From IMG/VR virus record IMGVR_UViG_3300031963_000166, positions 1 through 58,516 of that record: DNA of 58,516 nt; one strand, 5' to 3'. The translations under genes were made by a program, and so were the position numbers. The notes under the pieces were generated by a model. It did not search any database and had not been told where the DNA came from. It worked only from the letters and a program-made list of their open reading frames with translations. How positions within the stretch are numbered: position 1 is the stretch's first letter; each line of letters opens with the position of its first letter. Below are positions 1,191-42,400 of this stretch, one piece after another. The DNA is from a virus (lineage: Duplodnaviria > Caudoviricetes).

Positions 1191-1460
1191 ATGAAGAAAG
1201 GAAACCCACAAAAGAAAGCGGAGAGGATCGACTCTCGGGCGTCAAAGAAAATGGACAAGGCCAAGTCTACATGGAATAAGGCAGAGGCCATGAGAAAGTC
1301 CCCCGTTGGATCCAACCGAACGTTTGCTCAGGAGGATTTCGGGAAAATGGCTCACCAGGTCAAGACCGAGAGGCTGTACGCAAAATCTGCAAGGCAGGCC
1401 GACAAGGCAAAAGAGTTGAAGACCCGGGCGGGGATCGTCAGAGCCGGGTCAAAGAAGTAA
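1191..1460 (+). CDS. Small basic K/A/R-rich protein
   Basis: 89 aa, 3 nt after the previous stop, followed by a terminator. Confidence 0.75.
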   Translation: MKKGNPQKKAERIDSRASKKMDKAKSTWNKAEAMRKSPVGSNRTFAQEDFGKMAHQVKTERLYAKSARQADKAKELKTRAGIVRAGSKK

Positions 1461-1503
1461 AGGCTTTTTTCATAGTTGAATTAAGGATAGGTTTTGGTAG
1501 CAA

Positions 1504-1536
1504 TGAAAAGCCCCTCAAACGTGAGGGGTTTTTTCA
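1504..1536. terminator. Bidirectional intrinsic terminator
   Basis: AAAAGCCCCTCA-AACG-TGAGGGGTTTTTT between convergent transcription units. Confidence 0.85.
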
Positions 1537-1609
1537 TCCATATCCACCCCAATCGGGCGTACTTGTGCAGGTTTGTCATCCATAGCCAATAGTTATCGGC
1601 AAATAAATT

Positions 1610-1810
1610 TTACTTCCTATCCCTCTCCGAAATGAACCTTGCATCGCCTTGTAAATACTTTACTGCATCCCAAAGGTCATCTAATACTATTGTCCCAAGT
1701 GGTAGCAAATTACCTTTACCATCTTTTACACCTGACAAGTAAATTGCAAGGTCACTTAGCGATTTTGTGTTAATCATTTTTCTTTCTTGAACTGGTTGTT
1801 TGTCTTCCAT
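1610..1810 (-). CDS. Hypothetical protein (cassette 1 ORF)
   Basis: 66-aa ORF filling the cassette body. Confidence 0.7.
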   Translation of the reverse strand: MEDKQPVQERKMINTKSLSDLAIYLSGVKDGKGNLLPLGTIVLDDLWDAVKYLQGDARFISERDRK

Positions 1811-1830
1811 AATCCGTAAAATTTATCAGC

Positions 1831-1962
1831 CTATAACATACGCTATACAAAAGTGGGGCTGTGTGCCAAATCTGTATAGTTGTGCATCTAATTTGCTTTT
1901 GTGCGGTAAGCAAGGGTTATGCATCTTATTCCCCACCTTCGTATAGCGTTTTGCCGTTAGCT
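1831..1962 (+). repeat. attC-like recombination site (132 bp)
   Basis: CTATAAC, 5 nt, CTATACAAAAGTGGGG ... CCCCACCTTCGTATAG, 9 nt, GTTAGCT; imperfect inverted repeat whose two A/C mismatches become G-T pairs on the bottom strand. Confidence 0.8.
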
Positions 1963-2352
1963 TCAATTGCCTGCCAACGCACGTTTATCCGTTAAAAATT
2001 TCATTAATAAATAAACACCATCATTTACGCCTGACCAATAGAAATCTTTATCTAAAGTCGGGTTTGCTTTGTGCCATTCATTTATAAAATCGTCAACAAG
2101 TTTTTTAGCTTCTTCATGGTTAGGTAACTTATTATGTTCTTCAATAATTGCTGCCGTTAATTCACGAGCTTTACCAAGTGAAATATTTTCATTGTGAACG
2201 TGTCCCCAAACATCTTGAATAATCCAACAAGCAGGTAAATGTTTGTGATAAATCGGATTTAAAACTTGTCCCGATTTTTGGCGTTCCATTAATTCTTCTA
2301 CGGTAATTTCTTTATCAAACCCGTATTTTTCGTGTAATTCTTCTACTGTCAT
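1963..2352 (-). CDS. Hypothetical protein (cassette 2 ORF)
   Basis: 129-aa AT-rich ORF; stop codon immediately beside the GTT site. Confidence 0.75.
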   Translation of the reverse strand: MTVEELHEKYGFDKEITVEELMERQKSGQVLNPIYHKHLPACWIIQDVWGHVHNENISLGKARELTAAIIEEHNKLPNHEEAKKLVDDFINEWHKANPTLDKDFYWSGVNDGVYLLMKFLTDKRALAGN

Positions 2353-2406
2353 TTGTTTATTTATTAATTGTTAATATTCATTCTAAAGCCAACGCAATGC
2401 AACTAA

Positions 2407-2470
2407 AGCTAACAGCACCTAAACCGCAACTCCGCTACGCTCCGCAGCGTTTAGCTGCAAACCGTTAGGT
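2407..2470 (+). repeat. attC-like recombination site (64 bp)
   Basis: AGCTAAC-AGCAC-CTAAACCG ... CGTTTAG-CTGCAAACC-GTTAGGT; 8-nt L'' with an extra C against a 7-nt L'; exact GTTRRRY. Confidence 0.85.
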
Positions 2471-2476
2471 GCAATG

Positions 2477-2863
2477 CTATCCGACTGACAACTCAAAATA
2501 ATAATGACCTCCAGTTCGCCACATGACATATCTCATTTGAAAGTGAGTAAGCCACATATTAGATGTGATGGCTGCAATAGTTTCTTCGTTGCCACTCCAT
2601 CCACCTGTATGTAATTCAAGTTTGTGTATGCCTTTGTATTTTCTGTGCAAAACAAATCCCCAATCTGACATATACCACCCATCAACAAGAACCTTTTTTA
2701 CAAAAGTGAGCAAAGGCAAACTTTCATCTGGCTTGTAAGTTTTAATAAATTGCAGCCATTCCTCCGTTGGATAACCTTCATCATCCAAAAGCACGGCAGG
2801 TAACACAGTGTTGCCGTCATTGCTGGCTTCTGTGCTATTTTGAAAGTTTTGTTCTGTATTCAT
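2477..2863 (-). CDS. Hypothetical protein (cassette 3 ORF); starts inside the attC-like site
   Basis: 128 aa with an LHTGGWSGNE motif; N-terminus encoded by the attC bottom strand. Confidence 0.8.
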   Translation of the reverse strand: MNTEQNFQNSTEASNDGNTVLPAVLLDDEGYPTEEWLQFIKTYKPDESLPLLTFVKKVLVDGWYMSDWGFVLHRKYKGIHKLELHTGGWSGNEETIAAITSNMWLTHFQMRYVMWRTGGHYYFELSVG

Positions 2864-2929
2864 CTTTCGTTTTTCAATTAAACATTTGTGCTAATAAACC
2901 GCCACTGCAGCAATGCCTTAACGTTAGTA
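2798..2929 (+). repeat. attC-like site, more degenerate or chimeric (132 bp)
   Basis: AGGTAAC-ACAGT-GTTGCCGTCATTGCTGG ... CCGCCACTGCAGCAAT-GCCTTAAC-GTTAGTA. Confidence 0.65.
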
Positions 2930-2947
2930 GCAAGCGGGCGGACACTC

Positions 2948-3169
2948 TTAATCATTTGCTTTACTCGCTTCGTTAATTCTTTGGTTAATCATCTGGTAGA
3001 TTTCATCTACAAGAGTATACTCTTTTTTGTTGAGTTCTCTGTACTTCCAGATTTGTCTAATATCCTCTCTGATATTATGCAAAGCAATGTAGTACTCCTG
3101 TCCATTAATAGCATAGCGGAAGTCATCTCCATCTTCAGGAAGATTAAACTCTAGTATTGCTTTACTCAT
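2948..3169 (-). CDS. Hypothetical phage protein (KAILEF.LPED family), paralog of 9948..10151
   Basis: Trimmed to ATG of MSKAILEFNLPED; shares its N-terminus with 9948..10151. Confidence 0.75.
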   Translation of the reverse strand: MSKAILEFNLPEDGDDFRYAINGQEYYIALHNIREDIRQIWKYRELNKKEYTLVDEIYQMINQRINEASKAND

Positions 3170-3290
3170 TTTTTTTTGAAATATAAAACTTGTCAAACAG
3201 ATATGCTATTATTCTAATAAGAATTTGTAGAATTAAAAATATACCAAACGGTAAACCGAACATAATAACTACTAATTCTTCTATTGTCAT
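3162..3290 (-). CDS. Small single-TM membrane peptide (42 aa, below ORF-track cutoff)
   Basis: Own translation: MTIEELVVIMFGLPFGIFLILQILIRIIAYLFDKFYISKKNE; ATGA overlap with the upstream stop; fills the gap exactly. Confidence 0.6.
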   Translation of the reverse strand: MTIEELVVIMFGLPFGIFLILQILIRIIAYLFDKFYISKKNE

Positions 3291-3559
3291 TTGTCACCTC
3301 CTTCATTTTTTGTAGTTAAAGTACATCTACTACCTGGTAAACTTGTTGTGTTAAGCATCTCAAGGTGATCCACAGAAGCAGTAAGTGTCACAGACTTGTG
3401 CTGGTCATCATGTGGAATACTCTTGTTGTCTCTAATCCTTTCAAGATTACCCAGTTGTTTTTTAAAGGCATCAAGTTCCGCACTTAGAATCATCTTTTCG
3501 TTTTGCAGGTTCTTGATATGCTCTTCACAATCTCTAATTGCAAATTCTATCTTGTTCAT
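3287..3559 (-). CDS. Hypothetical protein with N-terminal coiled coil
   Basis: 90 aa, ATGA-coupled to neighbours. Confidence 0.7.
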   Translation of the reverse strand: MNKIEFAIRDCEEHIKNLQNEKMILSAELDAFKKQLGNLERIRDNKSIPHDDQHKSVTLTASVDHLEMLNTTSLPGSRCTLTTKNEGGDK

Positions 3560-4173
3560 TGTTTAGATTGTTTAAGTGATTGAATAACTCTTTCTTTTGC
3601 TTTAGCTGATAAAACAGTACAATTCATAGCTTCCCTAACTTGTTCCTCTGTATATAGAGTTTCTTTGGCTTTGTTGTAACCTGCTTTGAATGCTTTTCTT
3701 ATTAAAGAAGAATTTGGATATAAATCATCATTTAATGGATAAAATTCCTCAGCCAACTTCTCTACATCTTCCACCATCTTCCCGACATCAGGAACATGGT
3801 TGACCATTTCGTTGACCTCACCAATATGGTTTATCATCTTGTTGCTGTCACCAAGTTGATCAATGACTTCATCCCATGCATCATAATTATTAACCGCATA
3901 TACCTCGCTGGTGTCAACAGGATGATGAATTAGTTTGGCATAGGTTAATCCATTTACGCCTACTTCACCATTTTCCCATTCTGTAACCATATCAAAATTT
4001 ATTTCTTTACCATCCCAATCAACTGAGTAATCACCATAGTCAATGCAGGTTTTCACATCAGCGGGATGCAATGGAAATGTTCCCCACCAAGACTTGTAAC
4101 CTATTGGTGTTTTTTCTGCTACTTTATGTTCCACCACCCACCCTTGGTCTGTTTTCACTAATGTTCCTTTCAT
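3556..4173 (-). CDS. Hypothetical mosaic protein with 10-aa repeats
   Basis: 205 aa; QLGDSNKMIN / HIGEVNEMVN / HVPDVGKMVE repeats. Confidence 0.75.
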   Translation of the reverse strand: MKGTLVKTDQGWVVEHKVAEKTPIGYKSWWGTFPLHPADVKTCIDYGDYSVDWDGKEINFDMVTEWENGEVGVNGLTYAKLIHHPVDTSEVYAVNNYDAWDEVIDQLGDSNKMINHIGEVNEMVNHVPDVGKMVEDVEKLAEEFYPLNDDLYPNSSLIRKAFKAGYNKAKETLYTEEQVREAMNCTVLSAKAKERVIQSLKQSKQ

Positions 4174-4409
4174 AGTTTTACCTCCTCATAAGTTGCTTCA
4201 AATATTTCCTTGTCAACTAACCACCTTTCCCCCTTGATCCCGACACACAAGTAGTGCTTGCCAAACTCGCCAATGTGATAAGGGTTTTCTAGTGTTTTGA
4301 TGTATGGCAGGTCACCACCAAACTCTTCGGTGTGAAGGATAAACCCATCCTCGTCCCCCTGTTCAAATAACTTAGCTTGTACTGTTGCTGTTTTTCTATA
4401 CGTTTTCAT
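4170..4409 (-). CDS. Conserved small phage protein (PGDYG-like beta domain)
   Basis: YRK..V.A ... IKTLE ... G.KGE.W ... IFEATYE pattern. Confidence 0.65.
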   Translation of the reverse strand: MKTYRKTATVQAKLFEQGDEDGFILHTEEFGGDLPYIKTLENPYHIGEFGKHYLCVGIKGERWLVDKEIFEATYEEVKL

Positions 4410-4720
4410 AGCTTTTGTATTTCTTGTTCTACTTGTTCTAAATACTCCAACATATCATACCCCGTCATGTGGTCTGGGTGTTCACCTTCAAAGGTAAATT
4501 TGCGTTCTCCAATGGCATCAAAGGCAAAATATTCAGGTTTGTGGAGTCCATCAAAGATGCCTTTCATGTGCTTTACTGCTATCAAAGCACATTGCTTGGC
4601 TTGATATAAACTCATTTCTGTGCAATCACAATATCTTTTATTTGGAAAATGCTCAATACCACAATGCTCTGTATTGTACATCTTATCTACTAATTCTTCT
4701 GCATATTGTTTTGGATTCAT
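4406..4720 (-). CDS. Hypothetical phage protein
   Basis: 104 aa, ATGA-coupled. Confidence 0.75.
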   Translation of the reverse strand: MNPKQYAEELVDKMYNTEHCGIEHFPNKRYCDCTEMSLYQAKQCALIAVKHMKGIFDGLHKPEYFAFDAIGERKFTFEGEHPDHMTGYDMLEYLEQVEQEIQKL

Positions 4721-4941
4721 TTGTCACCTCCGTATGTTTCGTTGTAAAAATCTTCAATTGTCATTTCACCAACTTCATATATCTGCCTAAGATAGTTGTT
4801 AGTAAATTGAATCATCTGCTCCTTGTCCATTTCTTTGGCTTCTGCTAAACACTTTCTAAAATGCTCTCTTTCTTTTGGGTCAGAGAACTCAAGGAATGGT
4901 AATAAATGTGCAAATAACCACTCTACTGCTGTTTGTTTCAT
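4717..4941 (-). CDS. Hypothetical phage protein (MKQTAVEWL type)
   Basis: 74 aa, ATGA-coupled. Confidence 0.75.
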   Translation of the reverse strand: MKQTAVEWLFAHLLPFLEFSDPKEREHFRKCLAEAKEMDKEQMIQFTNNYLRQIYEVGEMTIEDFYNETYGGDK

Positions 4942-4943
4942 AA

Positions 4944-5213
4944 TTATTTGTATTTTCTTATTAGTTCAAACGTCTTTTTTATATCCGTCCAATTGAGATG
5001 TATCTCCTCGCCACGCCTAACAGGATACCACGCTATGGTGTATCCGTGGTTAGCGTTGTAGAAGTCTTCCCTCTTTATAACATTGCCGTTAACCTTGTTA
5101 AGATATATCCAAGGTATGTTTCCTACAAGCTCAATGTTGACTCCTATCTTCTGAAGTCTCCTTACGAAAACACTCAGTTCATTTTCATCCTCCTGTTTAA
5201 GAAAATTTTTCAT
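4944..5213 (-). CDS. Hypothetical phage protein
   Basis: ORF track 4944..5339 trimmed to ATG of MKNFLKQ to avoid overlap with the cassette. Confidence 0.7.
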   Translation of the reverse strand: MKNFLKQEDENELSVFVRRLQKIGVNIELVGNIPWIYLNKVNGNVIKREDFYNANHGYTIAWYPVRRGEEIHLNWTDIKKTFELIRKYK

Positions 5214-5251
5214 TTTTCGGTGCAAGGGTACTGCATATATATATCTATCCG

Positions 5252-5660
5252 TTAGCGGCAACCTCACAGAAACTCCTCCACCTTGTGAGTGTCTAACCCA
5301 GTATAAGTGTGTATTAGTTTCCGTAAAGCCAAACCGCAACTTTCTGCCATTTTCATTCTATCCTCAACTGACATACCATCGTAATCTTGGTTGTCATACA
5401 TTTTGTCCATCAATGCAGTTTGGAAAATAATAGTAGCGTTCATGAAATCCCTGTTGGAATAATTAGGCTTGTTTTCATTCCCTTTTGCTTCTGCATTTTG
5501 CGTTAGCAAGTCGTTTGCTATTGCTTCAAGTGTTGTTTTATAACTTCTCATTGTGTATTAATTTGTGAAAAAGGGCAGCCGCCAACAAGTGCTATGCAAT
5601 ATGGCGGCTGACGTGCTTCGGTTAAACATTTTACTTAATTCAACTGTGGTGCACGGATTG
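5252..5660 (+). mobile_element. Isolated integron-like cassette with truncated attC (left arm only)
   Basis: G^TTAGCGGCAACCT at 5251 is reverse-complementary (10/14) to GGGCAGCCGCCAAC at 5573-5586, which is followed by AAGTG-CTATGCAATATGGCGG; no right arm found; right boundary approximate. Confidence 0.6.
5264..5551 (-). CDS. Hypothetical protein (cassette ORF)
   Basis: 95 aa, fills the cassette body. Confidence 0.75.
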   Translation of the reverse strand: MRSYKTTLEAIANDLLTQNAEAKGNENKPNYSNRDFMNATIIFQTALMDKMYDNQDYDGMSVEDRMKMAESCGLALRKLIHTYTGLDTHKVEEFL

Positions 5661-11678: not shown

Positions 11679-13619
11679 TTATTCCCACGACTCTTTGTGC
11701 CCGTTTGGGTGGGTCTCCTCTTCCCATTCTTTGATGTCTTTAGAGTCTGTCCAGCTTCTGTTTGGCCTTATTGCCGACGGCTTTGGCTGCTCTATTGGGT
11801 ACTGAACATTTTTTCCATCAATTGCTTGCTGCAGGTAGTCTACGCCGTTAAATGTAAATCTCCTGATTCTTCTGTTAAGCTGAAAAATGCAAAATCCTTT
11901 TTGACCCACTATTTTTTGCTTCTTGATTTTTTTGCTGTGGAATTCGCACGTCGGATCATCCGGAGCCGTTTGGGCAAATGGCCTGTGATAAATCAGTATG
12001 TTGTCAACCTTGTTGTTCCACATCGCTCCGTCAGCCAAATCAAAAACGTCAGGGCACGGATAGTTTCCGTCATCGCCCTTCCTCATCTTGTGAGGGTGAA
12101 TAACAATGTCAAAGCAAACGTTGTTTTTTCTTGCGAAACGCGTGCAGTCCGACAAAAACGTTTCAAGGTACTTATCCGTTCTTCCCGAGCTCTTAGCATA
12201 ATCGTTGGCCATTTGGTTGAACGGATCTATGACGACCCTGTCTACGTTGAATTTTATTATCAAGCTGAGGAATATCTCCTTGACATAATCAGGGGTAGGG
12301 GCTACGTCTTTTGGGTAAACCATAAAAATGTGCTCGCCGATCATTTTGTACACCTTCATGTACGATTCGTATGGCGGTCTCCCTGGGTTGTTAGGAGTGC
12401 AGTCGCACCCAAAATATATCTCTACAAGATCGTGGTAAAACTGCTCCGCAGGAAGTTCTTCCGGCGTGAATATGGCCACCTTTTCGCCAAAAACAACCAT
12501 TCTGAAGATCATTTCCCACTTCATAAATGCCGATTTCCCGTAGTTTCCTATTCCTGATATCGCGGTAAGCTCCCCTTTTGCTCTTTTGAAATGTTTGTCA
12601 ATCTCCGGGACACCAAGCGGTTGGGCTGTCTTGTACCCATTAAGGTATATGCTTGCCGCCCGATCAGAAACCTCTTCCGCATAAATAACATCTTCTTTCG
12701 ACATTTCTGCGGCGTCTTCTTCCGTAATGATTATGTCGATCTCTCTCTTGGTTGTTCTTGTCACAAGTTTCTCGTTGGTAAACTCAGCGGTGTTCCATTG
12801 TGACTTATTCGCCCTGTAGGCGCTTCTTACGGCGTTTCTGCATTCTTTTTGACTAAAGCTTGCGTCTGGCACAACATATGTCATCATCATGTTGTAACAC
12901 GTTTCCTCAAGCATTCCAAACCTACAGCAACTCGCGGCGAGTTTGAACACAAAATGATTTCTCTCGCCTTCCCGAAAAGCATCTCCTCTTGATGCCATCC
13001 ATGTTAAAAGGTTGTTGAATATTTTGTCATCGTCGGTAACTGTAATTTGCTCCGTGTGTTGCCTCCTGTTTTCTACACGATCGGAGACCGGCAGCTTATC
13101 GAACGCCAGAGCCTGATGATTCATCAAAATATTCGGGTCAAACGACTCAAAACATAGTCTTGAAACGTTTCTGCCGGTCTTATCGGCATCTGGAAACTCC
13201 TGCATAAGCGCGTCAAAGTGCTCGGCATGCTTTGACTCCCATTCTATTTCAACCAAGGCTTTTACTCCGTTTCCAGAAGGAGAAATCCACGCGGCTAAAA
13301 CATACTTGGAAAGCGCCAACTCTTTCTTTTTTTGTTCAGCATCTGGCACCTTGTCAAAATCAAGCACAACATACCCGGAATGCTCCATCAGGCTTCCGTC
13401 TGCCCTTTTTGAAAACCTACCGCTAAAACACACTCCAGGTAGCGTTTTTTTGATTTCGTCAGCTTCTTCTTTTGTCTTGGCCGATCTGATCTTTTCGACA
13501 GTTTCACGAGACTTACCGTCTTTAATCCTGTCAAGAGCCTTGGAAATAGTGATCACGTCACCGGTAATGTCTCTTGAGTTTCTGTATATGGAAACCTTAC
13601 CATTTATTGTTTTCGTCAT
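11679..13619 (-). CDS. Primase-helicase: BT4734/VirE-N-like primase, PriCT domain and DnaB/RecA-type helicase
   Basis: SGYVVLDFD, SPSGNGVK, SRLCFESFDP (N-terminal); GERNHFVFKLA (PriCT); Walker A GIGNYGKS and Walker B VVIDP. Confidence 0.88.
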   Translation of the reverse strand: MTKTINGKVSIYRNSRDITGDVITISKALDRIKDGKSRETVEKIRSAKTKEEADEIKKTLPGVCFSGRFSKRADGSLMEHSGYVVLDFDKVPDAEQKKKELALSKYVLAAWISPSGNGVKALVEIEWESKHAEHFDALMQEFPDADKTGRNVSRLCFESFDPNILMNHQALAFDKLPVSDRVENRRQHTEQITVTDDDKIFNNLLTWMASRGDAFREGERNHFVFKLAASCCRFGMLEETCYNMMMTYVVPDASFSQKECRNAVRSAYRANKSQWNTAEFTNEKLVTRTTKREIDIIITEEDAAEMSKEDVIYAEEVSDRAASIYLNGYKTAQPLGVPEIDKHFKRAKGELTAISGIGNYGKSAFMKWEMIFRMVVFGEKVAIFTPEELPAEQFYHDLVEIYFGCDCTPNNPGRPPYESYMKVYKMIGEHIFMVYPKDVAPTPDYVKEIFLSLIIKFNVDRVVIDPFNQMANDYAKSSGRTDKYLETFLSDCTRFARKNNVCFDIVIHPHKMRKGDDGNYPCPDVFDLADGAMWNNKVDNILIYHRPFAQTAPDDPTCEFHSKKIKKQKIVGQKGFCIFQLNRRIRRFTFNGVDYLQQAIDGKNVQYPIEQPKPSAIRPNRSWTDSKDIKEWEEETHPNGHKESWE

Positions 13620-17476: not shown

Positions 17477-19939
17477 ATGGAGCACGAATACCAACAGGAG
17501 GACGAGTACGTTATTTTTCATGAAAATGACCCGGATCTTGATACAATCAAGATTAAACTACCAAGGCTTGAGGAGTGGTATAGTGACGTTTTGAAAAGAC
17601 CGGTCTCAAGGGAAGAGGCGCTAACATTTGTTGATGGGTACGGGCTGCCTCCTGAAAAACAAAAGTTTACCCACCAAGAGATGCCCGAAAAACTCAAGCT
17701 CATCTATGAGGTTGTTTTTAATAAAAAGCACGCCACCAACAGAACCAGGTACAAGGAGGCCACAGACGTGAGGCTTGAGGATCTCTACGAAGAGATAGAG
17801 ACAAATCAAAAATACTACGCTTCTGAAATCGTATGGATTAAGACGCAGATAAAAAGAAGGTATATTGGATACTGGTGTTTTATCAAGGGGAAGCCAACGT
17901 ATCTTAATGGCGCCAATTATTTTTTTCTAAACTTTTGGCCGGTAAAAAACTTTGGGAAAAACAACAACAGGGCTGATTACAGGGATTATCAACGGCAGAT
18001 ATTTCACTTTTTGATGTACTGCTACACTACCCATGAAGCGTTTTACAAACACAGGATCACATACAGGGAAAACGGCGCTGTAAAGGTTCGGTATTCAAAC
18101 CGAGATGTAAGGGACGTAGTGGAGGAGATGAAGGAAATGGATGTTGAATATTATGTGGAGCCCAACATTGCAATATCCATTGACATGGGCAGGAGGACTG
18201 TGCACGGCGCGAACTTTGTGTCCGGAAGACGAATAGCGAAGACGGCTATTTCTTGCTGCTTCTGCACATGGGGGACGCTCAATATGCCTGATCAGACATT
18301 CATCATCCAGGCAATGAATGAAGATCAGGCCATAAACAAAATATTTGTTAAACAAATCCAAACGCCGGTTAGCAAGCTGCCGTTTTTCTTCAGGCCGCAC
18401 TATCGCGGGAAGCTTGAGGCAAAGCAGGGGTTAAGATTTCAGTACGAGGGGTCTGTGGCCGCCGCAGCAAGAGCCGGGATGATTCCCGAGCAGATGGAGT
18501 GTTTTATAACGCCGTTGACATCAAATGAAAAAGCGGCGGACGGCGAGGCTGAAATTGCTTTTGTCTACCGGGATGAACCGGCAAAAAAGACAGATGCAAA
18601 GGCCGCTGACCAAAACATACCGACGTGGTGGTACAACACCATGAAGCCGGCCATAGAGCGAGGAAGAAATATTCGTGGTTTTTGCGTCATGCCCTCGACT
18701 GTTGGCGACATGGAGAGTGGCGGTGGATCTCAGTTTTTCGAAATAGCAAATGAGTCTCATTTTTCGGACAGGAACGAAAACGGCACGACAGCGTCTGGCC
18801 TTATCAATTTTTTCCTGCCCGGATATTATGCTCTTGAGGGCTATATTGACGAGTACGGAGCAAGCGTTGTCGAGGATCCGCCGGAACCGGTAATGTCCAA
18901 TGATGGCAAGTGGATAAAAGAGGGTGCAAAAACGCATCTTTTAAATCAGGCTGAGTATTTTGAAAAAAAGAAACAGTGGGGTAACCTGATTAAATTGCAG
19001 CAAAACTTTCCGATGTCGTGGAAGCAGGCTTTTGCTGTCATACCCAAAGACATGGGCATGCCGATTGAAAAAATGAGAGACAGGATATCTGAACTCAAAT
19101 TTTCAAAGACTCCTCTTTCGACAAAAATCAACTTAAAGTGGGTAGGAAACAAGTTTGGTGGGGATGTGTTTATTGAAAATGATCCAAAGGGAAAATGGAC
19201 AATGACATTCCTTCCTCCAATTGAGCAAAGAAACCTTCGGGTCGTTGTTTCTGCAGAAGAGGGTTATGTGCCACCAAAGGAGAAGGGTCTTATTTACGCC
19301 CCCGACCCGTCAGTTATGAATAAGTTTTTCCTGGCGTGTGACCCTGTGAAATTCCATAGAAGAAACACGGTTGGGAAAAAAAAGTCCAATGCCGCCGCCG
19401 CAATATTTTATAAGCGGGATTCCCAGGTAGACCCAGACACGAAGCCTCGCAACGAATGGGTGTCAAACGATTGGGTGATGATATATAATCACCCGGTTGA
19501 CGACAAGGAGGAGTACCACGAGGAATGGCTGAAGGCGGCCATATTGTTTGGCGCCTACGTTTACCCAGAATGGCCTGACGGAGAGTCTATCGTTGAGTAT
19601 TTTAGAGAAAATGGATTTGACGGATACCTATTGAAGGATGTCGGCGCCGACGGCAAGCAAGATTCAAGACCCGGGGTTTGGGCTGGCGTTGCTGAGCAAA
19701 ATGAAATGGCCGGTGATATAATGACGTTTTTCTACAACAATGCAAGGTATGTAAAGATATGGGAAATACTTGACGAATGGACTCAAATGAGAGGCATTGA
19801 CGATCTTACCAATCATGACTTGTGCGCTGCGACTGGCTGGTGCATGAGGGCGATAAAAAGCAGGATGCCTGATATTTACAAAGATGTTTATCGTCCAATT
19901 GAGGTTACGGGTGGATTTGACACATACAGTATAGACTGA
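17477..19939 (+). CDS. terL: Terminase large subunit
   Basis: 820 aa; Walker A-like SGRRIAKT, Walker B VYRDE, PST motif, nuclease ACDP and HDL; precedes the portal. Confidence 0.88.
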   Translation: MEHEYQQEDEYVIFHENDPDLDTIKIKLPRLEEWYSDVLKRPVSREEALTFVDGYGLPPEKQKFTHQEMPEKLKLIYEVVFNKKHATNRTRYKEATDVRLEDLYEEIETNQKYYASEIVWIKTQIKRRYIGYWCFIKGKPTYLNGANYFFLNFWPVKNFGKNNNRADYRDYQRQIFHFLMYCYTTHEAFYKHRITYRENGAVKVRYSNRDVRDVVEEMKEMDVEYYVEPNIAISIDMGRRTVHGANFVSGRRIAKTAISCCFCTWGTLNMPDQTFIIQAMNEDQAINKIFVKQIQTPVSKLPFFFRPHYRGKLEAKQGLRFQYEGSVAAAARAGMIPEQMECFITPLTSNEKAADGEAEIAFVYRDEPAKKTDAKAADQNIPTWWYNTMKPAIERGRNIRGFCVMPSTVGDMESGGGSQFFEIANESHFSDRNENGTTASGLINFFLPGYYALEGYIDEYGASVVEDPPEPVMSNDGKWIKEGAKTHLLNQAEYFEKKKQWGNLIKLQQNFPMSWKQAFAVIPKDMGMPIEKMRDRISELKFSKTPLSTKINLKWVGNKFGGDVFIENDPKGKWTMTFLPPIEQRNLRVVVSAEEGYVPPKEKGLIYAPDPSVMNKFFLACDPVKFHRRNTVGKKKSNAAAAIFYKRDSQVDPDTKPRNEWVSNDWVMIYNHPVDDKEEYHEEWLKAAILFGAYVYPEWPDGESIVEYFRENGFDGYLLKDVGADGKQDSRPGVWAGVAEQNEMAGDIMTFFYNNARYVKIWEILDEWTQMRGIDDLTNHDLCAATGWCMRAIKSRMPDIYKDVYRPIEVTGGFDTYSID

Positions 19940-20005: not shown

Positions 20006-22402
20006 ATGCTTTTACCACAATTAGCTGGAGGGATCTTATTCCCTGATGACAATATCCCCGAAAAGGATAAGCTTGATCCGAGTTTCGGTTTGAAGTGCGG
20101 AAGGGCGCTTTATTCAAGATTTTGCGCTGGAGGGACATATTTTTCGATGCCCCAACTACCAGAGATGCAGGACACACGAAACTACGGAGCCGGGATGCAG
20201 TCTACCGAAAGATATAAAAGTCGTTTTTTCAACGGGTCTCCAGTCGGCAGCAAGGGAAGCAAGCAAGCTCCGTCCGGCGCTCCTATCGGCGATATGACAA
20301 AGGCTCAAAGAAAAGCACTTGTTAACATTAGTTATGATATTTTTTCTCCGATGAGAAAAATGACCAATGTTCTTTTGTCTGTACTTGCCGACAATGACTA
20401 CAAGGTAGACTGTCTGTCGCTTGACAGAAGTGTGATAGAAACAAAAAGGCGATCCAAGGCCACGATACTTGCAAGAAGCAAGGTGGTGAATCCCTTTCTT
20501 GAATCTATCGGATTAAAAAAGCTGCATGTTCCGTTTGTTGCAAGAGATCAGTCAACGGTTGATATGGCCGACAGGCTTGGGTTTTTTAAGGCCAGATATG
20601 AAGTCGCCCTTGAGAAGCTTGCCGAGTCTGGTTTCCGCGCTGGGAAATACAAAGATCAGCGAATGGCTTACAATCGCGATGCGATTGATTACCACATTCG
20701 CATAGGAAAGATTTACAACGACGAAAAAACGGGACAGGTAAAGCCGCAGTATATTGATCCCGCAAGAACCGTTATGTTGTGGAACGAAGACAACGAGAGC
20801 GACCCCGTGGCGATAGGCCACATTGAGGTTGAGATGATACAATCGATTTACCCCAAGCTAAAGGAAGCTGGTTTTTCTGATAAAGAAATCCAGTCTATGG
20901 CAAAATCGTATGTTCCGTATCAAACAGACGTCTCATCAATCCCTGCGTGGGCATTTGAAAGAAAAGACCCGACAACAAACAAGTGGGTATGGATGGACTT
21001 TAAGGTGTATGTTTTAAAGTTTGAGTATTTGTCAACTGATTATTCTCAGTACGTTGAGAGAACGAACAAAAAAGGAGTTAAAACGTTCTTGAAAAACAAC
21101 GTTCCTGTCGAGGATAAAAAGAAGAATCCAAACGAAAATTACCACGAGGTGTCTTGCAATTACTGGTATGAGGGAAGTTACATAATATCTGGCACCGGAC
21201 AGGATCGGATATACGGGTGGAGAAAAAAACCCAACCAAATGCAGGGCGGCCTCACGCCAAAATGCTCGTATGTGGTTGACAGGATTTACGGGCAAAGCCC
21301 AACGAGAAGCGTAAAGGGTCTTCTTGATGACCTGATGATCGCCGTCCTTAAGCTCAGGGCTGCCGTTTTTGTTGCTGCCCCGAAAGGATACAGAATAGAC
21401 ATTGGCGAGGCCGCAAACATCAAGATCGGGGGCGTGGAATACGACTTGTTCGACCTGGTGCACGTTCACCGGCAAAACGGCATTCTTGTCGCCGCAACCA
21501 AATTCAATGCGGCAACAGGCAAGTACGTTTCCCAACCGTTGGTAGAGATGGACAATGGTCTTGGTCCTCAGGGTCAAGAGTGGCTTGCTCAGATAGCCAA
21601 TATTCAATTAATGATTAAGGATATTCTCGGCATTCCGGATGCTATGGCTGCGAGCCCCGATCAAAGCGCAGAAAGGCTCGTCGGAGTCATGGAGGCCGAC
21701 TACAACGCTGGCAACCATGCCAACTGGCCGTTAAAAGAGTCCGAAAGAAGGTTTAAGGAAAAGATGGCGGAAAGAATGATTCATCAAGCCAGGATAGATA
21801 TTCAGTTTGATCCGGATATTGAAGAGTTTTACAGAGCAATCATTGGAGACAACTTGGTAAACGCCCTCCATGAAATAGAGGATCTGTCTCTTGACGATTT
21901 GGCAATAACCTGTAGATCTTTGCCAAACGAAAAGGAAAAAGATGCTATTCTGCAAAGGGCAATTCAGATGTCTCAAATACCGACAAAGGACGGCTCCGTT
22001 TTGCTTTCCCCTTCAAGCGTTGAGCGGGTTGCTCAAATGCTTAAAAACGGAGATGTGGACGAGGCCCTGTGGTTCATGGCGAAGTCTGAGATGGAGGCAA
22101 GGGATCGCGAGGAAACGCACGCTAAAGAAATGCTTCAGCAAACCATTCAGGGTCAGCAACAAACGGCGATCATGACGGAGCAGGAGAAGCTCAAGTCGGC
22201 AATGAAGCTTGCGGAAGTGGAGGTTAAGAAGTATGCGGCTATGGCAAACGTGGATCTTCAAAAAGAAAAAGAGCTATCAAGCCTCAAGGCCGACCAGGAT
22301 TATGACATCCAATTGCTAAAGGGTGAGCAAGTTCTTGAACAAATAAACCTTGAGGCTACCCTTGAGTCTCAGTACGGAAACGAAATAACAGGAAGAGTAT
22401 AA
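20006..22402 (+). CDS. Portal protein
   Basis: 798 aa after TerL; YIDPA and ILGIPDAM motifs; C-terminal coiled coil; TAAATTTG box at 19970-19977. Confidence 0.82.
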   Translation: MLLPQLAGGILFPDDNIPEKDKLDPSFGLKCGRALYSRFCAGGTYFSMPQLPEMQDTRNYGAGMQSTERYKSRFFNGSPVGSKGSKQAPSGAPIGDMTKAQRKALVNISYDIFSPMRKMTNVLLSVLADNDYKVDCLSLDRSVIETKRRSKATILARSKVVNPFLESIGLKKLHVPFVARDQSTVDMADRLGFFKARYEVALEKLAESGFRAGKYKDQRMAYNRDAIDYHIRIGKIYNDEKTGQVKPQYIDPARTVMLWNEDNESDPVAIGHIEVEMIQSIYPKLKEAGFSDKEIQSMAKSYVPYQTDVSSIPAWAFERKDPTTNKWVWMDFKVYVLKFEYLSTDYSQYVERTNKKGVKTFLKNNVPVEDKKKNPNENYHEVSCNYWYEGSYIISGTGQDRIYGWRKKPNQMQGGLTPKCSYVVDRIYGQSPTRSVKGLLDDLMIAVLKLRAAVFVAAPKGYRIDIGEAANIKIGGVEYDLFDLVHVHRQNGILVAATKFNAATGKYVSQPLVEMDNGLGPQGQEWLAQIANIQLMIKDILGIPDAMAASPDQSAERLVGVMEADYNAGNHANWPLKESERRFKEKMAERMIHQARIDIQFDPDIEEFYRAIIGDNLVNALHEIEDLSLDDLAITCRSLPNEKEKDAILQRAIQMSQIPTKDGSVLLSPSSVERVAQMLKNGDVDEALWFMAKSEMEARDREETHAKEMLQQTIQGQQQTAIMTEQEKLKSAMKLAEVEVKKYAAMANVDLQKEKELSSLKADQDYDIQLLKGEQVLEQINLEATLESQYGNEITGRV

Positions 22403-36403: not shown

Positions 36404-39400
36404 ATGGCTGTCCCAGCAAATGTAAAATATTACGAGTATCTCAAGTCAAAAAAGCTCGATGTGCCACCGACGTACGATTCGTTTCAAAAAACCCTCTCGG
36501 ACAAAGAGAAGGCGATGAAGTACTATTCCTATCTTTCATCCAAAAAGTCCCAGGGCATGGACGTCGACATCCCTGCTTCTTTTGACTCTTTTTACAACAC
36601 GTTAAACCCAAAGGGGGCATCATCAGAGGTTGGCGCGGCTTCTGGAGAAGATTTAAACGCGCCGCAGCAGCCTTCCGCTCCGAGTTTTACGGGGGCGAAA
36701 GGAATGAAGCCAAGGGGAATTCAGCCCGCCTTAAAACAAGAAGCTGAAAAGCCACGGCCAACCAAACCGTATCAAGATATCATGCCAAAGATGGAGGAAG
36801 CTCCATCCGAAACAACGCAGGCCGCAGTTCCCGCTCCTATATCGTTTGCCGAGCAGGAGCAAGAAAAGGCAAACGAAAGCATAAGGAGAGGATATCTACC
36901 ATCGAATCCAGCGATAGTTAACGACCGTGTAATTAGCGAGGTAGAGAAGGTCAGAGAAGAGGAGGGGATGGAGCCTATAGAGGACGTTTTGTCGAGAAGG
37001 GTTGCCCTCAATCAGATAGACGACGTAATGGAGACTTTCGGTCTATCAAGCGAACAGGTTGACGACTATATGGAAAATTCGGCAAGAGACATTGACTCGA
37101 TGGCTCTTGACCAGATAACCCAGGCGGCGGGCATGGACAGTGAATTTCTTGAATACAAGAAATCATTAAAGACGGGAGACGCCATAAGCCCCATCTATCA
37201 AGGAAGGATGAGGGAGAGTCAAAAAAAGGTTTTTGACGCAGCTATGGGCGACTATTGGAATTTCTTGGCGAGAAGCAATTACGGGGCATACAAGGACAAC
37301 AAGGACAAGTATGATGCGCTGAAGGCAAAGACTGCCGAGGAGAGAACGACTGAAGACGAAAGATGGTTAAAGCTCACGGAAGACAGAGCCACGGCTCTCT
37401 ATTCCGCTGCGGCAAAGAAGGAGGCTATTGGTTTGAAGGATAATATTTCCCAAAAACTAAAATCTGTTGCCGGCGTTGATTACGGAAAGTATCTTTCTGC
37501 GACAAAAGACTTCAATGCCAAGGCTTCTGCTCTTGAAAAAGAGCACGCCGCCGGGAAGATAAACGACCAACAGTACGAGGAAAAATACAATGCTGCGTAC
37601 GATGAATTAGAGGCCATCAAGAGAGACTCGGGCGTGAATGATAGCACAATGGCTACACTCAATGAGATTGACGACCTGACGTCAAAATACGGGCGGACAC
37701 TCCTGAAAGACGTAGCGGTAAAAACTTCAGGTTTTTCCGAGACTCGTAGCTACGATAAGTGGCTCGAGGAACTGGAAGAGAAGAAAAGGAATTCGGAAGA
37801 CTATGAGAGGTTGTGGAAGGAGTCTGGGGCGTTCGGTAAAGCGGTGCTTGGAGGTTATGAGTTTACCAGGAAATTGGGTGGCAGCGTATTTAATTCCGCT
37901 ATGGACGTGGCTGGGGGTCTCGTGAGAGTTCTTGATGCTGCGGACGCCAAGGGGCTTTACCAAGGTGTTGGCTATGATTTTTCGGATCAGATGTACGACA
38001 AAATCATGAACATGAAGGCCGTAACAGAATCCAAAAGGTTTGATGCGGACGCCGATTCTGTTCTTTATAATTTGGCCGACATGACCGGAAACGGATTTGG
38101 TTCTGTTGTTGCTTTTGGTCTTGGCGGATCTGCGGCACTTGCTTTAAAGGCGCCGGCAGCCGCTGGCACGTTCGTCACAGGATACCTCATGGCCGAGTCA
38201 TCTACTTATCAAGAGTTGATGGATAGCGGCGTCGTGTCAAGCCAGGAGGCCACCTTGATCTCAAATGCCGTAGCGCCAGTGGTAGCCTCCATAGAACTTC
38301 TTGTCCCTGACTCAAAAGTTATCCAGGGGTATGTTCGACCGGCCATAAGAGCTGCCGTTGTTCAGGGAAAGCCTCTTTTGAAGGCTGTTGACGAATCCTT
38401 GCAAACATACGCAAAGTCATTTGGCAAAGAGGCGTTCGAAGAGGGACTTGGATATGTGGGTGAGGTGTCGGCAAAAAACATTGTTGACGCGGTTGGCGGC
38501 TACGATTATTTCAATCAAGAGTTTTCACTGAAGGACTTGGTGATCAATTCTCTTGGCGGCGGGCTTACCGGCGGCTTGATGAATTTCTTCAGCTACTCAT
38601 CAACTCCATCTCCCGTTAAAGAGAGGGCGGTTCTTGAGATGGCTGAAAACGGGCAGCAGATTATAGATTCACACAAAAACGAAAGAACCATATCGGATCT
38701 CAGGACCACGCTGAGCAAGCCGATGGAAGATTTGCGCGGGCTTAAAGCCCATCCAAATTGGAACAATCTCGACAGAAGCAAGCAAGCCCGGGTTTTTTCC
38801 ATTAGTCAGCAAATAAGATCCCTCGAAGAGTCATCCGTACAAGACCCGATCGTTAAGGCTCAGGTCGGCAGATTGAAGGCTGAGCAGCAAGAAATATTGT
38901 CTCTTGGCGCGAACGGAATGGACGCAAAGGCTGTTGGTGTTTCGACTGACAAGCAGAGGGTTTTTATTGGTGATCAGCAGGCGTTTTTTTACATAAACGA
39001 GGACGGCGATTACGAGATAGAGTACAATGACGGCAGAAGCGTTGTTGTGTCTAAGGGCGAAGGCGCAGCCGAAAAGGTTCGTGCCATGGGGATAAGGGCC
39101 GACGACGGAGAGGTCGCGGCAATGAATAAAGAGAATCAAAACACACTCATTACCCCAAGGCTCGAAAGAGGTGCTACTGTTGACTACAACGGAAAGAACG
39201 CAACGGTAAATAGCTACAAAGAAAAAGACGGCAAGGTGGTGTATGTAAATTTGACCACCGAAGACGGAAGGACTCTGCAGATCAGGGAAGGTCAGGCAGG
39301 GGTGGGACAAGAATTATTAAATAATTTAAATAATCTACCTTATGATCAAAAAGACCAAACAAGGATATCAGGTGAAGTCGGAAAAGGGCAAGAACCTGTC

Positions 39401-42400
39401 ACAACCCAACCTGTCGAAAGCACAAGCGAAGAAGCGCCTGCAACAGGTGGAGTTCTTCAAGCACAAGAAGAAATAGACTCTGTAAGACAGCGGATAAATG
39501 CAATTGAAGCCGCAAGAAGAGAGGGCAGAATCCTTGAAGATGAAAAGCCTAATGAATTAAAGGGACTTAAGGCAAGGGAAAAAGAATTATTGTCCCAAGA
39601 GACCAAACCGTCTGGACAAAAATTAACCGTTGGAAGCAAAATTCAATGGGACGTATTCGGCAATGAATCAATGAATGAATGGACTGTTGCTGAAGAAACT
39701 ACAACTAAAGGCGGACAACCAGCGGTAAGGCTTACTCGGTTTATAGAACAGGGCGTTGCCGAAGGCGGCGGAGTTGCGGGGTACACTCAAGAACATATTG
39801 TGCCAATCGCTGACTTGCAAGGCAAGCCGGCCGCCGAAGCCGCCCCCCAAACACAAGGGCAAGAAGAAGTAATAGCTCCACAAGCAACAGAAGAAGCCGC
39901 TCCAAAGACCGAAGAAAAACCAACCCGTAAGACTCGACTCGCCAAATTATTTGAGGTATCCGAAGGAGAGGAGGCCGTGCCAGCAATTGAGCAGGCCCTT
40001 TCTGAAACCGGCATAAAGGTAGAAGTTATGGACGATGCCGAATACAACGAGGACAATCGCATAAAAGACAGTCAAGGTCGCGGTTCAGAAGGTATGTTTG
40101 TGGCTGATGACGGAACGATTATCTTAAACCGAGATAAGATTAAGGGCGAATGGGGTAAAACTATCGTGTTCCACGAAGGTATTCACCCCGTGGTAAACAT
40201 CATTCGCAACACTGATCCGAAACGATACAAGGCAATCGTGGAAGGACTAAAGGCAGAAGCTGCGAGGAACAACGATGTTGCCAGAGTTGCTGCCGACATT
40301 GCTGCTTCTGAAGAGTATCAAAGAAGAGGTCCTGAGAGTATTGAAGACGAGACCGTTGTTGAAACCATGGCTCGCGTGGCTACAGGGGATGTCAATATCG
40401 ATAAGTTTGAACCTACCTTCCGCGAGAAGTTCATTGAATTCATGAACGACATAGCTAAGGCACTTGGATTGAGACCTATCCTCACAAATTCTCCACGAGT
40501 TGAGGTGAAGCGTTTGGCTGATCAGATCAACAAAATGTTGAATGAGGGCGGTAAAATTAGCGATGTTGTAGGGAAGAAAAATGTAGGTGAATTTCAGAAC
40601 AAGATAACTTTAACCGATACAAACTCTGTTTTTTCAAATACAAGCTCTCAAGCCAGATTTGAAATGAAGTTTTTGGAAGACTCTGAAGACTTTACCAAAT
40701 TAATAGAAGAAGGGCGCGTAGTTCATAACGCAAGTTTAGATGACATAAACGGAGAAACTGTTGTTATTCATAATCCGGATAACTTTTCAACTGGAGAAAT
40801 AAAGTTCAGAGGAAAGGATCTTGTGAAGGGCGAAGGTGGTGTTTACTTTGTTTTGCTGTACGATGATGTATGGGCCTCTGGTAAAAAATCAAGTGCTTCG
40901 CAATTAGCTTCTTTGATAAATGAGTCATTACAAAAATCAACTGATGGTAAAGGTCGATTAGTTCTGGTAAAAGGAGACGCAAGCAAGAATTTAACAAGTG
41001 TAAAGGGAGCCAAGGCTCTTATGGGTGTTATGGAGATATTGGCGGATGATGGATTGATTCCGCTAAGTGCTTTTAGAAAAGCATTGAACATTGCCGGAAA
41101 GAAGTACGGTATCAATTTCGACGGAAGAAACGATGCTAAATCTATCCACAAGGATATTCAGGATAAATTTATGAATGTATCCAATTCATCTTTCGAAAGA
41201 AGAGGTGATTTCGTTCGTGATGTAATTGATGCCATAGCCAATCAAAATGTATTGTCCAAGGAGGCTATAGCGGAAATCGCTGAATCTATTGGAGCTAAAA
41301 GGAAAATGACCACGTTCTCTAAGGCGAGCATCCTTGATTCTGTTGCGTATGCGACCAGCGAAAGGATGCTCAGAGATATTCCTAATTCTCATGTATACGC
41401 TGTAATAGAAACGTCTTCAAAAGTAAAGCCTGAATTTGTAGGCAAGCATGAGTCTTACCCATGGCATATAGTTACTGAGGACGGAAGCAAACCTATTCTT
41501 TATATACTTAAGGACAGACCATTCTATAACGATGCATTTGTAGCCGCTAAAAGCACTGAGAAAGTAAAAGAAGGGGAAAGATTTGGTGACGTAAGCCGTG
41601 CTGGATTGGCTCAAAGAGGCATGGGGCTTGCTAAAGTGGAAACGAAACCGACTGGCCAACCGTCCAAGGGCATCAAACGCGGCAGAAACTTAGTCAAGGA
41701 CACCTACTACGAAGCCGGCCTGACCGAAGACAAGAATGACTATGTATTCTTCCATGTATCGTCAGCTCCCAAGGCTTCGATTATGAAGGGTATTGATAGT
41801 ACCAAGTATACCTCGCTTAGAACGGCAAGAGAAGAGAAGGGCCTACAATATGGTGTTGCCTCTTATTACACTCGTCCGGAAGATGGAGAAAGAATGGTGG
41901 GTGGTGAAAAGTATGCGGTTCGCGTACCTAAGGGCAAGGTTTATCCTATCGATTCCGATCCAATGGGATACGGAGAAAAGGCTGAGGAAAATGTACCACA
42001 AGGTACACCATTCCGTGGAGAGGCCGTGAAGCGTGAGATCGCAGACATGGCTAAGAAGGATGGATACCAAATGATTGTTGGCGAGTGGTCTTACAGCCGC
42101 ACTGGAAAGCCAGCAGGAGAGATTCCTGAGTTCCGCGCAGACGCACTTGTGCCACTCAAGCCTACTGCCGAGAAGCCAACGTCGTTCACATCAAACGCCG
42201 AGAAGGGCATGGAGAGAATTCCGTTCCCAAGTCAGCAGAGCGAACAGGCTAAGCAGGAACTTGAGAACATCGCCTCTGAGGTGCGTGATATTATGTCGAG
42301 CAAGAAGAAGTTCTCAAGCAAGGAATACCAGCTTGCCGACAGCGTTTACATGAGCGGTCAGGTTACGGAAAATAAGTACGAAGACAACGAATTCAAGCGC

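Follow-up and report, generated by a model that had tools for sequence, protein, structure and literature searches.

A probable three-cassette, integron-like array in a tailed-phage genome and related hairpin-site arrays in Bacteroidia

Integron chemistry is thought to depend on a domain that is specific to the integron integrase IntI. Xer/dif mobile units, such as the integrative mobile elements exploiting Xer (IMEX) exemplified by CTX phage and the pdif modules of Acinetobacter plasmids, consist of modules bounded by inverted short sites. The attC sites of integrons carry unpaired central spacers of 5-6 nt and extrahelical bases near L'', and their bottom strand is folded and cut at AA↓C, according to the part of PMC5027507 that treats site structure. 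Bacteroidota are regarded as having few integrons or none, and IntegronFinder 2.0 identified only one complete integron in Bacteroidetes, as far as the survey results excerpted from PMC9024848 extend. In phages, the sections of Qi et al. 2023 (PMC9892861) on phage genomes report 17 attC clusters without an integrase among 10,705 genomes, one of them in Polaribacter phage P12002L; IntI1 acted on five of the six sites tried, and of the two that came from P12002L on one. In T4-type phages, the shuffling of genes at promoter early stem-loop (PeSL) motifs is ascribed to recombination between the repeats in the portions of PMC2839356 and PMC4122927 that deal with these motifs. Here we describe a run of three small cassettes at positions 1592-2923 of the IMG/VR record IMGVR_UViG_3300031963_000166 (Caudoviricetes), a probable Bacteroidota phage. 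The viral record in full, a linear sequence of 58,516 bases with a CheckV completeness of 89%, was analyzed and is called the window below. We report the anatomy and exact boundaries of the array, its turnover among relatives, a strand-specific conserved hairpin, and the linkage of arrays of this type to a tyrosine recombinase. These observations make it likely that the three cassettes of the window form an array belonging to an integron-like system of gene capture, one that is widespread in Bacteroidia and their phages.

The locus resembles the attC-site clusters that have no integron integrase (CALINs) published for phages, in that an attC-like cluster with small accessory genes and no integrase sits in a virulent-looking phage; P12002L is a Bacteroidota phage. 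It differs from them in that the sites in the phage sections of PMC9892861 are tied to IntI1 and no Bacteroidota platform is named there, whereas another recombinase family and chromosomal arrays are involved here. The PeSL regions, as outlined in those portions of PMC2839356 and PMC4122927, are alike in having small accessory genes in a hyperplastic region with a conserved stem-loop between them and a gene content that varies among close relatives. Unlike what is outlined there, the present sites show a split-palindrome footprint and a linked site-specific recombinase.

Anatomy and turnover of the phage cassette array

The array consists of three single-ORF (open reading frame) units, and the + strand G↓TT ends of these units fall at 1592, 1956, 2464 and 2923. 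At the backbone/first-cassette junction (1585-1598), which looks attI-like, G 1592 is the last backbone base and TT 1593-1594 open cassette 1; on the folding strand the last arm ends in ..TAAC and meets the backbone without a hairpin. Cassette 1 (1593-1956, + strand), delimited by an alignment to the phage record L027, comprises a start arm, ORF1 (1610-1810, - strand, 66 aa), a long hairpin site and the final G 1956. Its arms at 1592-1613 and 1816-1837 were complementary at 19 of 22 positions in a repeat search (22 nt, 86%). Site 1, an attC-like hairpin of ~133 nt at 1827-1960 that folds on the - strand, has a stem at 1840-1858/1931-1949 that paired at 17/19 positions in the same search (19 nt, 89%), and it scored 137.3 bits (E 2.3e-34) with the covariance model R1 described below. 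Cassette 2 (1957-2464, + strand), delimited by contigs L162 and L163, contains a start arm (1956-1970), ORF2 (1963-2352, - strand, 129 aa), an arm at 2399-2413 complementary to the start arm at 13/15 positions, a short hairpin and the final G 2464; in the repeat search this pairing extended to 1952-1970 against 2399-2417 (16/19; 19 nt, 84%). Site 2 (2399-2470, - strand), a short attC-like site, reads TAAC, 5 nt, stem-loop, 1 nt and GTTA on the folding strand. Cassette 3 (2465-2923, + strand), delimited by alignments to L144, L145, L147 and L148, comprises a start arm (2464-2478), ORF3 (2477-2863, - strand, 128 aa), site 3 and the final G 2923, and by reading its start arm is complementary to 2790-2804 at 11/15 positions. 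Site 3 (2790-2929, - strand) is degenerate. Its arm 2790-2804 lies inside ORF3, the first codons of ORF3 sit inside the site, and a second arm-like stretch at 2908-2922 abuts G 2923. A layout like that of window 2790-2863 was also seen in L162 (841-960, 1264-1278), where an ORF starts in the central region of the site and the GTTA arm falls within coding sequence.

This arrangement is that of integrons, in which single-ORF cassettes carry an imperfect-palindromic site, the AAC and GTT triplets are invariant, units end at G↓TT, and the opening bases of each cassette pair with the arm preceding its own site. Every site read has AAC and GTT; of the longer RYYYAAC/GTTRRRY boxes some fit, such as the GTT heptamer 2464-2470, and others, such as 1831-1837 and 1956-1962, depart from the consensus. 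Three sites lie within 1.4 kb and the 58.5 kb contain no recombinase, a layout that would be of the CALIN type should attC models class the sites as attC. Rfam gave 0 matches in the window at the gathering score and chance-level matches only at E<=5, and it holds no attC family. In six-frame searches of the window PF00589 gave 0 matches at E<=0.1, confirming the initial annotation, which had recognized no tyrosine recombinase there; the recombinase of Olivibacter (see below) used as query likewise gave none, and no serine recombinase was found.

To gauge how often such arms arise by chance, the 15-mer at each + strand GTT (n=1072) was compared with the best 15-mer ending in AAC 150-700 nt downstream. 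At least 12/15 complementary positions were reached by 9 of the 1072 GTT, including 1592 (12) and 1956 (13, the sole 13), and 11/15 by 49. The third arm pair (2464/2790) was therefore not above chance when taken alone. With DNA parameters, site 1 folded at -21.3 kcal/mol on the - strand versus -16.7 on the + strand, and site 2 at -15.6 versus -12.4. The array coordinates and the three arm counts put forward in the initial annotation were reproduced by the repeat search and by reading, and its polarity, with the + strand as top strand, fits an array bounded by ..TAAC ends without a hairpin. The attC-like hairpins it expected on the bottom strand were found at sites 1 and 2, both of which fold better on the - strand, but not at site 3.

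Near-identical phages (98-99.7% in the flanks) differ in their arrays. The viral contig L001 was 98.1% identical to the window over 9000-5646 and 98.5% over 1602-1269 and unrelated between, where 2.7 kb of other DNA, with three R1 elements inside, replaces window 1603-5645; homology returns at 5646. The metagenome contig L161 was 99.7% identical over 466-2418, then diverged, and had another stem-loop at site 2. Conversely, the same cassettes sit within other phage backbones, and their ends are at the + strand G↓TT. Cassette 1 occurs in L027, whose complete record of 33.7 kb has a different phage backbone and aligns over exactly 1592-1959 (94.0% over 368 nt). Cassette 2 occurs in L162 (from 1956) and L163 (from 1957), in which the DNA past ..TAAC is unrelated to the window. 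Cassette 3 was found in seven viral contigs, four of which gave alignments (87-90%) that start at 2463 (L144, L147, L148) or 2464 (L145); in L143-L147 and L149 the conservation upstream of ORF3 opens right after ..TAAC and that downstream closes at ..TAAC. Pieces starting exactly at 1592 were present in Logan contigs from three runs (X7, X12, X15) of three studies, and in one of these contigs the match is preceded by 495 letters that are absent from the window. Coincidence of indel boundaries in relatives with the GTT sites had been set beforehand as the point on which the cassette interpretation could fail, and the boundaries in L027, L162, L163, L144, L145, L147, L148 and the Logan contigs at 1592 do coincide. 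A distant blastn search of window 1400-3400 against the phage collection gave no match.

None of the three ORFs had a Pfam or PHROG match, and neither the protein atlas nor family scans gave a function. A near-identical 66-aa ORF to ORF1 is present in L027. Relatives of ORF2 (81-100% identity) were found in three metagenome contigs and in no viral contig, and its atlas matches were only unnamed clusters scoring <0.9. ORF3, which has a mosaic joint at 2809-2815 by comparison with its viral relatives, has relatives in seven viral contigs at 79-84% amino-acid identity, and its atlas clusters are 85-100% viral; by these matches the family is seen mostly in viruses.

Hairpin elements and chromosomal arrays in Bacteroidia

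A 15-base pattern taken from site 1 occurred at 119 viral loci, 26 of which contained the full ~133-nt element; the other 93 had no partner arm and were taken as chance matches. A 19-base pattern occurred in six genome contigs, five of them from named Bacteroidota (Olivibacter, Pedobacter, Chryseobacterium, Chitinophagales and a Bacteroidetes metagenome-assembled genome, MAG). The sixth, a 3.6-kb contig (L125) of a MAG labelled Gammaproteobacteria, may be mis-binned phage DNA or may show the family reaching beyond Bacteroidota. From 31 element copies we built the covariance model R1; nhmmer with the A1 profile recovered far fewer elements and was dropped.

The long element reads TAAC, 5 nt, a 19-bp covarying stem, a conserved center, 2 nt and GTTA, and site 1 fits this layout. 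In 53 copies from bacterial arrays and phages the stem showed covariation at 19/19 pairs, in an alignment that was itself fitted to the model, and 95.4% of stem cells were paired versus 38-46% when the partner was slid. In the phage type two G.T pairs never vary, and across the family one is nearly invariant (50/52). Because these G.T pairs are possible on one strand only, the - strand of the window is the folding strand. The 5' side of the element ends sharply at TAAC, and the hairpin subfamily tracks the following arm in 26/26 loci while the preceding arm varies; hairpin and arms of one kind recur beside unrelated ORFs among the viral loci. A reading with the ORF strand as top strand, which would put the longer spacer on the '' side, was rejected on two grounds: the ORF-downstream end of arrays is a ..TAAC with no hairpin, and the hairpin subfamily tracks the following arm as just described. 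By eye, TAAC is followed by a spacer of 5 nt and GTTA is preceded by one of 1-2 nt, and no bulge interrupts the 19-20-bp stem in the phage type. In the center of the element (window ~1862-1925) an 8-mer occurs twice. In L089 and L108 both copies carry the same variant, accompanied by a compensatory change in a small inner hairpin, which suggests a protein-binding or second structural feature.

A short type, which co-occurs with long elements in viral arrays, reads TAAC, 5 nt, an 11-12-bp stem, a conserved 11-nt loop, 1-2 nt and GTTA. Twelve of the 13 matches to the short-type loop had the full layout, and site 2 of the window has this layout with a different loop. The methyltransferase region of P12002L contains two short-type sites sharing the layout and loop of the family; with R1, sites of this phage scored ~10 bits and were not found.

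In the phage-type units the longest ORF was on the folding strand in 26/26 cases (two of 28 units were dropped, having no clear far arm), which is the reverse of the orientation in chromosomal cassettes. With the ORFs on the folding strand, the cassettes of the window can be read with the leftward operon, ending at a terminator-like hairpin just past the array (1506-1533; inverted repeat, 12 nt at 92%, with T runs on either side). By its sequence, this hairpin would halt transcripts that run leftward across the cassettes. In many cassette ORFs the final residues are N-A-L, since the final codons and the stop codon come from the conserved far arm; in viral cassettes the site thus constrains the C-terminus of the protein.

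To examine bacterial chromosomes, we sampled 151 genomes evenly from the class holding Olivibacter, which we take to be Bacteroidia in GTDB. R1 matched in 76 of them (214 matches in all), and the elements form clusters, with 17 same-strand copies in 14 kb of one genome (G016) and 12 in another (G153). In bacterial arrays the arm after one element and the arm before the next were complementary at a mean of 9.9/12 positions, with at least 9 in 32 of 37 pairs, versus means of 6.0/12 for arms of the same element and 6.3/12 for random pairs. This arm covariation extends into GTTGG/CCAAC variants. Sedentary chromosomal integrons are similar in that their hairpins are near-uniform within a genome and the arms are cassette-specific. 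The closest known counterparts are those sedentary chromosomal integrons that have homogeneous long attC sites, and those with an integrase co-oriented to the cassettes.

The Olivibacter array ends at a gene for a 355-aa tyrosine recombinase (L139 7697-8764), which is itself flanked by ordinary metabolic genes. In a second genome an orthologue 58% identical is placed alike, and the ORFs beside the two recombinases are unrelated. With the Olivibacter recombinase as query, 80 of the 151 genomes had matches at E<=1e-40: element and recombinase were both present in 55 genomes (among them the unpublished genome G099), the element only in 21, the recombinase only in 25 and neither in 50. The odds ratio of the association was 5.2 (Fisher p 1.8e-6, kinship uncorrected), and elements were present in 30 of the 34 genomes with strong orthologues (E<=1e-100). 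Among the R1 matches listed (150 of 214), a shared geometry on one contig was seen in at least 17 sampled genomes (18 loci) and in G003: the 3' end of the recombinase gene points towards the array, and the folding strand of the elements is opposite to the recombinase coding strand. Also among the matches listed, the loci of G059, G086 and G114 have the other geometry, that of phages. In 3/6 arrays the last ..TAAC lies 104-105 nt past the end of the recombinase gene and is followed by similar T/A-rich sequence without a hairpin, a junction that is, to judge by its sequence, attI-like. Integrons agree in these respects too: one strand folds better, and their long arrays of same-strand cassettes stop at a gene for a tyrosine recombinase, beside which the junction has no hairpin. 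In the bacterial arrays 29 of the 32 ORFs of at least 80 aa were on the strand opposite to the folding strand.

The linked recombinase and competing explanations

The best curated family for the Olivibacter recombinase was NF040815 (XerA type), at 230 bits against a cut-off of 220, whereas the integron integrase model TIGR02249 gave 202 bits in two pieces against a cut-off of 265. Compared with solved structures, the protein aligns end to end with archaeal XerA; in the comparison with VchIntIA (IntI4, 2a3v), a stretch of 61 residues in the integrase corresponds to 19 in this protein, in the region of the integron-specific insertion. The bacterial recombinase has an extra ~80 N-terminal residues. 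On these comparisons the array-linked enzyme is best described as a XerA-like simple tyrosine recombinase and not IntI. Smyshlyaev et al. (PMC8138268), in the part that defines an 'integron-like' subgroup, state that the insertion is not fully conserved within it, and the array-linked recombinase may belong to this subgroup.

These properties bear on the strongest competing explanation, that the cassettes are canonical integron cassettes with true attC sites, moved by a host IntI with the integron-specific domain, which would make the phage array an ordinary CALIN. In their AAC/GTT triplets, split-arm footprint, cut polarity and better-folding bottom strand the sites fit attC as the site-structure part of PMC5027507 describes it. 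According to the phage-site sections of Qi et al. 2023 (PMC9892861), IntI1 recombined a P12002L attC site with attI1 at G↓TTRRRY, and the two sites of the window's short type in the methyltransferase region of that phage are presumably the same as theirs. On the other side, none of five element-bearing Bacteroidota genomes had a protein over the TIGR02249 cut-off, and the recombinase at the array end lacks the insertion and falls below that cut-off. The spacers are asymmetric (5 nt and 1-2 nt) rather than 5-6 nt per arm, and neither an L box nor extrahelical bases are visible in the 19-20-bp stem. Arm length is 12-22 nt instead of 7, and the phage ORFs are consistently on the folding (bottom) strand. 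In addition, IntegronFinder 2.0 found almost no integrons in Bacteroidetes, within the survey results of PMC9024848 noted above. We therefore regard this explanation as improbable, though it is the best of the alternatives. Of the initial interpretation as IntI-type cassettes, the mobile cassettes and the integron footprint stand; a recombinase of the XerA type without the IntI insertion and a geometry off canonical attC do not agree with it.

A XerA-like recombinase is also present in some phages. In two of five whole viral records, of 100% and 67% completeness, it lies a few kb from the array, and it falls within the 2-kb flank at four of 38 viral loci. At the three loci where the strand was read (L159, with the gene at 1368-2261, L160 and L145) the recombinase is downstream of the cassettes on the folding strand. 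One phage recombinase was 32% identical to the Olivibacter enzyme, and the two phage recombinases examined are without the N-terminal extension of the bacterial form. Xer/dif units are alike in that the array-linked recombinase is closest to Xer/XerA proteins; they differ in that no 11-6-11 dif-like core was seen at the junctions read here, which have hairpins with split arms in direct-orientation arrays. The chromosomal array of Olivibacter contains a phage-type element (L139 5244-5377) with a folding-strand ORF, and its resident elements score only 45-54 bits. This element is the clearest sign of phage-chromosome traffic.

A second alternative is that the elements are regulatory repeats, terminator and/or promoter stem-loops between small phage genes that are shuffled by homologous recombination in the manner of PeSL. 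On the coding strand each phage ORF has the element upstream of it, the middle of the element is highly conserved (it contains the 8-mer altered at both of its positions in L089 and L108), and two breakpoints fall inside sites or at their far edge, as would be expected from this explanation. It leaves unexplained why arms specific to a cassette are complementary across the ORF between them and covary as far as GTTGG/CCAAC, why arrays end at ..TAAC without a hairpin, and why the tyrosine recombinase keeps a constant position at the array end. Because the bacterial-array ORFs are nearly all on the other strand, the element is no 5' leader there. We consider this explanation quite unlikely. An IS200/IS605 or REP/RAYT single-strand transposon inserting beside TAAC would account for strand-specific hairpins and for a fixed tetranucleotide at both unit ends, but it is very improbable, since PF01797 (Y1, HUH transposase) gave 0 matches in the window (bacterial genomes were not searched for Y1) and the gene beside the arrays is a tyrosine recombinase in six bacterial arrays and six viral contigs.

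The preferred reading is thus an integron-like system, for which we propose the following mechanism. The recombinase, or a phage-borne relative, would bind the folded single strand and cut at AA↓C 5' of the hairpin, in the place and with the polarity known from integrons. The array ends are in line with such a cut on the folding strand, its position being deduced from sequence. Cassettes would leave as circles, in which the two arms could pair to complete a site, and circular cassettes would enter at the hairpin-less backbone junction, at 1592 in the window. As the phage has no recombinase of its own, exchange would depend on an enzyme from a host chromosome or a co-infecting phage. The initial annotation had invoked a host integrase acting in trans, which we infer as one source of the enzyme; some related phages carry their own recombinase. 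Alternatively, the array of the window may now change by homologous exchange only. In its fullest form, our proposal is that Bacteroidia and phages share an integron analogue missed by standard tools, in which long arrays of single-gene cassettes with a hairpin-site family of their own are served by XerA-like recombinases that never gained the IntI domain, and that phages use this pool in the opposite gene orientation with their own enzyme or one supplied in trans. We consider the case for and against this fullest form to be evenly balanced.

Several observations weigh against the integron-like reading. Recombination itself was not observed in the data examined, and assignment of the recombinase to the elements is by linkage only. 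Among the 151 genomes, 21 of 76 with the element had no recombinase at E<=1e-40 and 25 of 80 with the recombinase had no element (completeness not given). R1 misses sites 2 and 3, and site 3 gave no single clean hairpin on folding. The break between the window and L161 (2413-2418) is at the other edge of site 2, and the ORF3 joint (~2805-2815) is at the inner edge of site 3, where L143-L149 stop at 2809-2812 and L151-L153 match 2801/2815-2867. These two off-position breakpoints indicate that some exchanges bypass the proposed cut point or that homologous recombination occurs in the repeated sites. Circles and whole-cassette excision joints at G↓TT were absent from the Logan contigs, which cannot show rare forms and in which the joints listed were short, with sides of <35 letters. 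A recombinase might also lie within the missing part of the 89%-complete record; the complete relative G163 (100%) and the complete record G165, which shares cassette 1, had no recombinase either. Finally, next to the array, a low-GC block of ~10 tightly packed small genes on the - strand (2924-5646), whose ORFs abut or overlap with no sites between them, is also replaced in the 98%-identical phage L001, by two GC-rich small ORFs (L001 11057-11433). Because this block differs from L001 without any sites, cassette exchange is not behind all variation here.

In the full-text literature, a body that leaves most subscription journals outside its scope, we came upon no account of an array family in Bacteroidota that goes with a Xer-like recombinase. 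What appears to be new is the site family with its non-IntI recombinase, its breadth within Bacteroidia and the reversed orientation of the genes in phages. The CALIN aspect in phages was already known, so that the suggestion of an undescribed system may hold for the Bacteroidia platform and is too strong for integrase-less attC clusters in phages, which the phage sections of PMC9892861 had already reported. A full integron footprint is present in half of an even class sample, beside a recombinase without the integron-specific domain, and the same cassettes occur in phages. If the linked enzyme moves the cassettes, the known range of hairpin-site recombination widens, and hairpin cassette capture on a single strand would not hinge on the IntI insertion. 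Discrete exchangeable units would then account for some of the hypervariable 'ORFan' regions in Bacteroidota phages, and phage accessory genes of the phylum would circulate as discrete cassettes among viruses and chromosomes, a direct and testable route of gene flow between phages and host chromosomes. For annotators, R1 together with the arm rule is a concrete model with which to find such arrays.

Surroundings of the array in the phage record

The array is at the 3' end of a leftward small-gene block within a low-GC island (GC 0.34-0.38 at window 2001-5000 versus 0.42-0.50 elsewhere in the window). The block at 2924-5646 is not counted within the cassette array. No further cassette right of 2923 and no site at 5560-5646 was found, the only feature there being a terminator-like hairpin at 5572-5610 without matching arms. 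This strong hairpin, followed by a T run on the - strand directly after a 342-aa gene, is likely a terminator separating that gene from the low-GC block. On the other side, two small, very basic proteins (112 and 89 aa) encoded at 849-1460 adjoin the array junction; both are kept in relatives of 62% identity, which hold more such genes (L002 10918-11866). The GC-richer left end (660-800) contains five tandem units of ~26 nt, variants of a cagaaagtaatttttcc core, which are iteron-like and possibly form an origin or a regulator binding array. Two neighbouring GTT/AAC arm pairs at 12/15 (8309 with 8635; 8653 with 9081) are within or beside a metallophosphoesterase gene and are probably due to chance.

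A search of the window for tRNA genes found none. Family scans identified a primase/helicase with a BT4734-like N-domain (11679-13619), the large terminase (17477-19939) and the portal (20006-22402). Further right, an ORF of 2593 aa spans 36404-44185, and a subtilase with a CARDB domain is encoded at 53624-55708.

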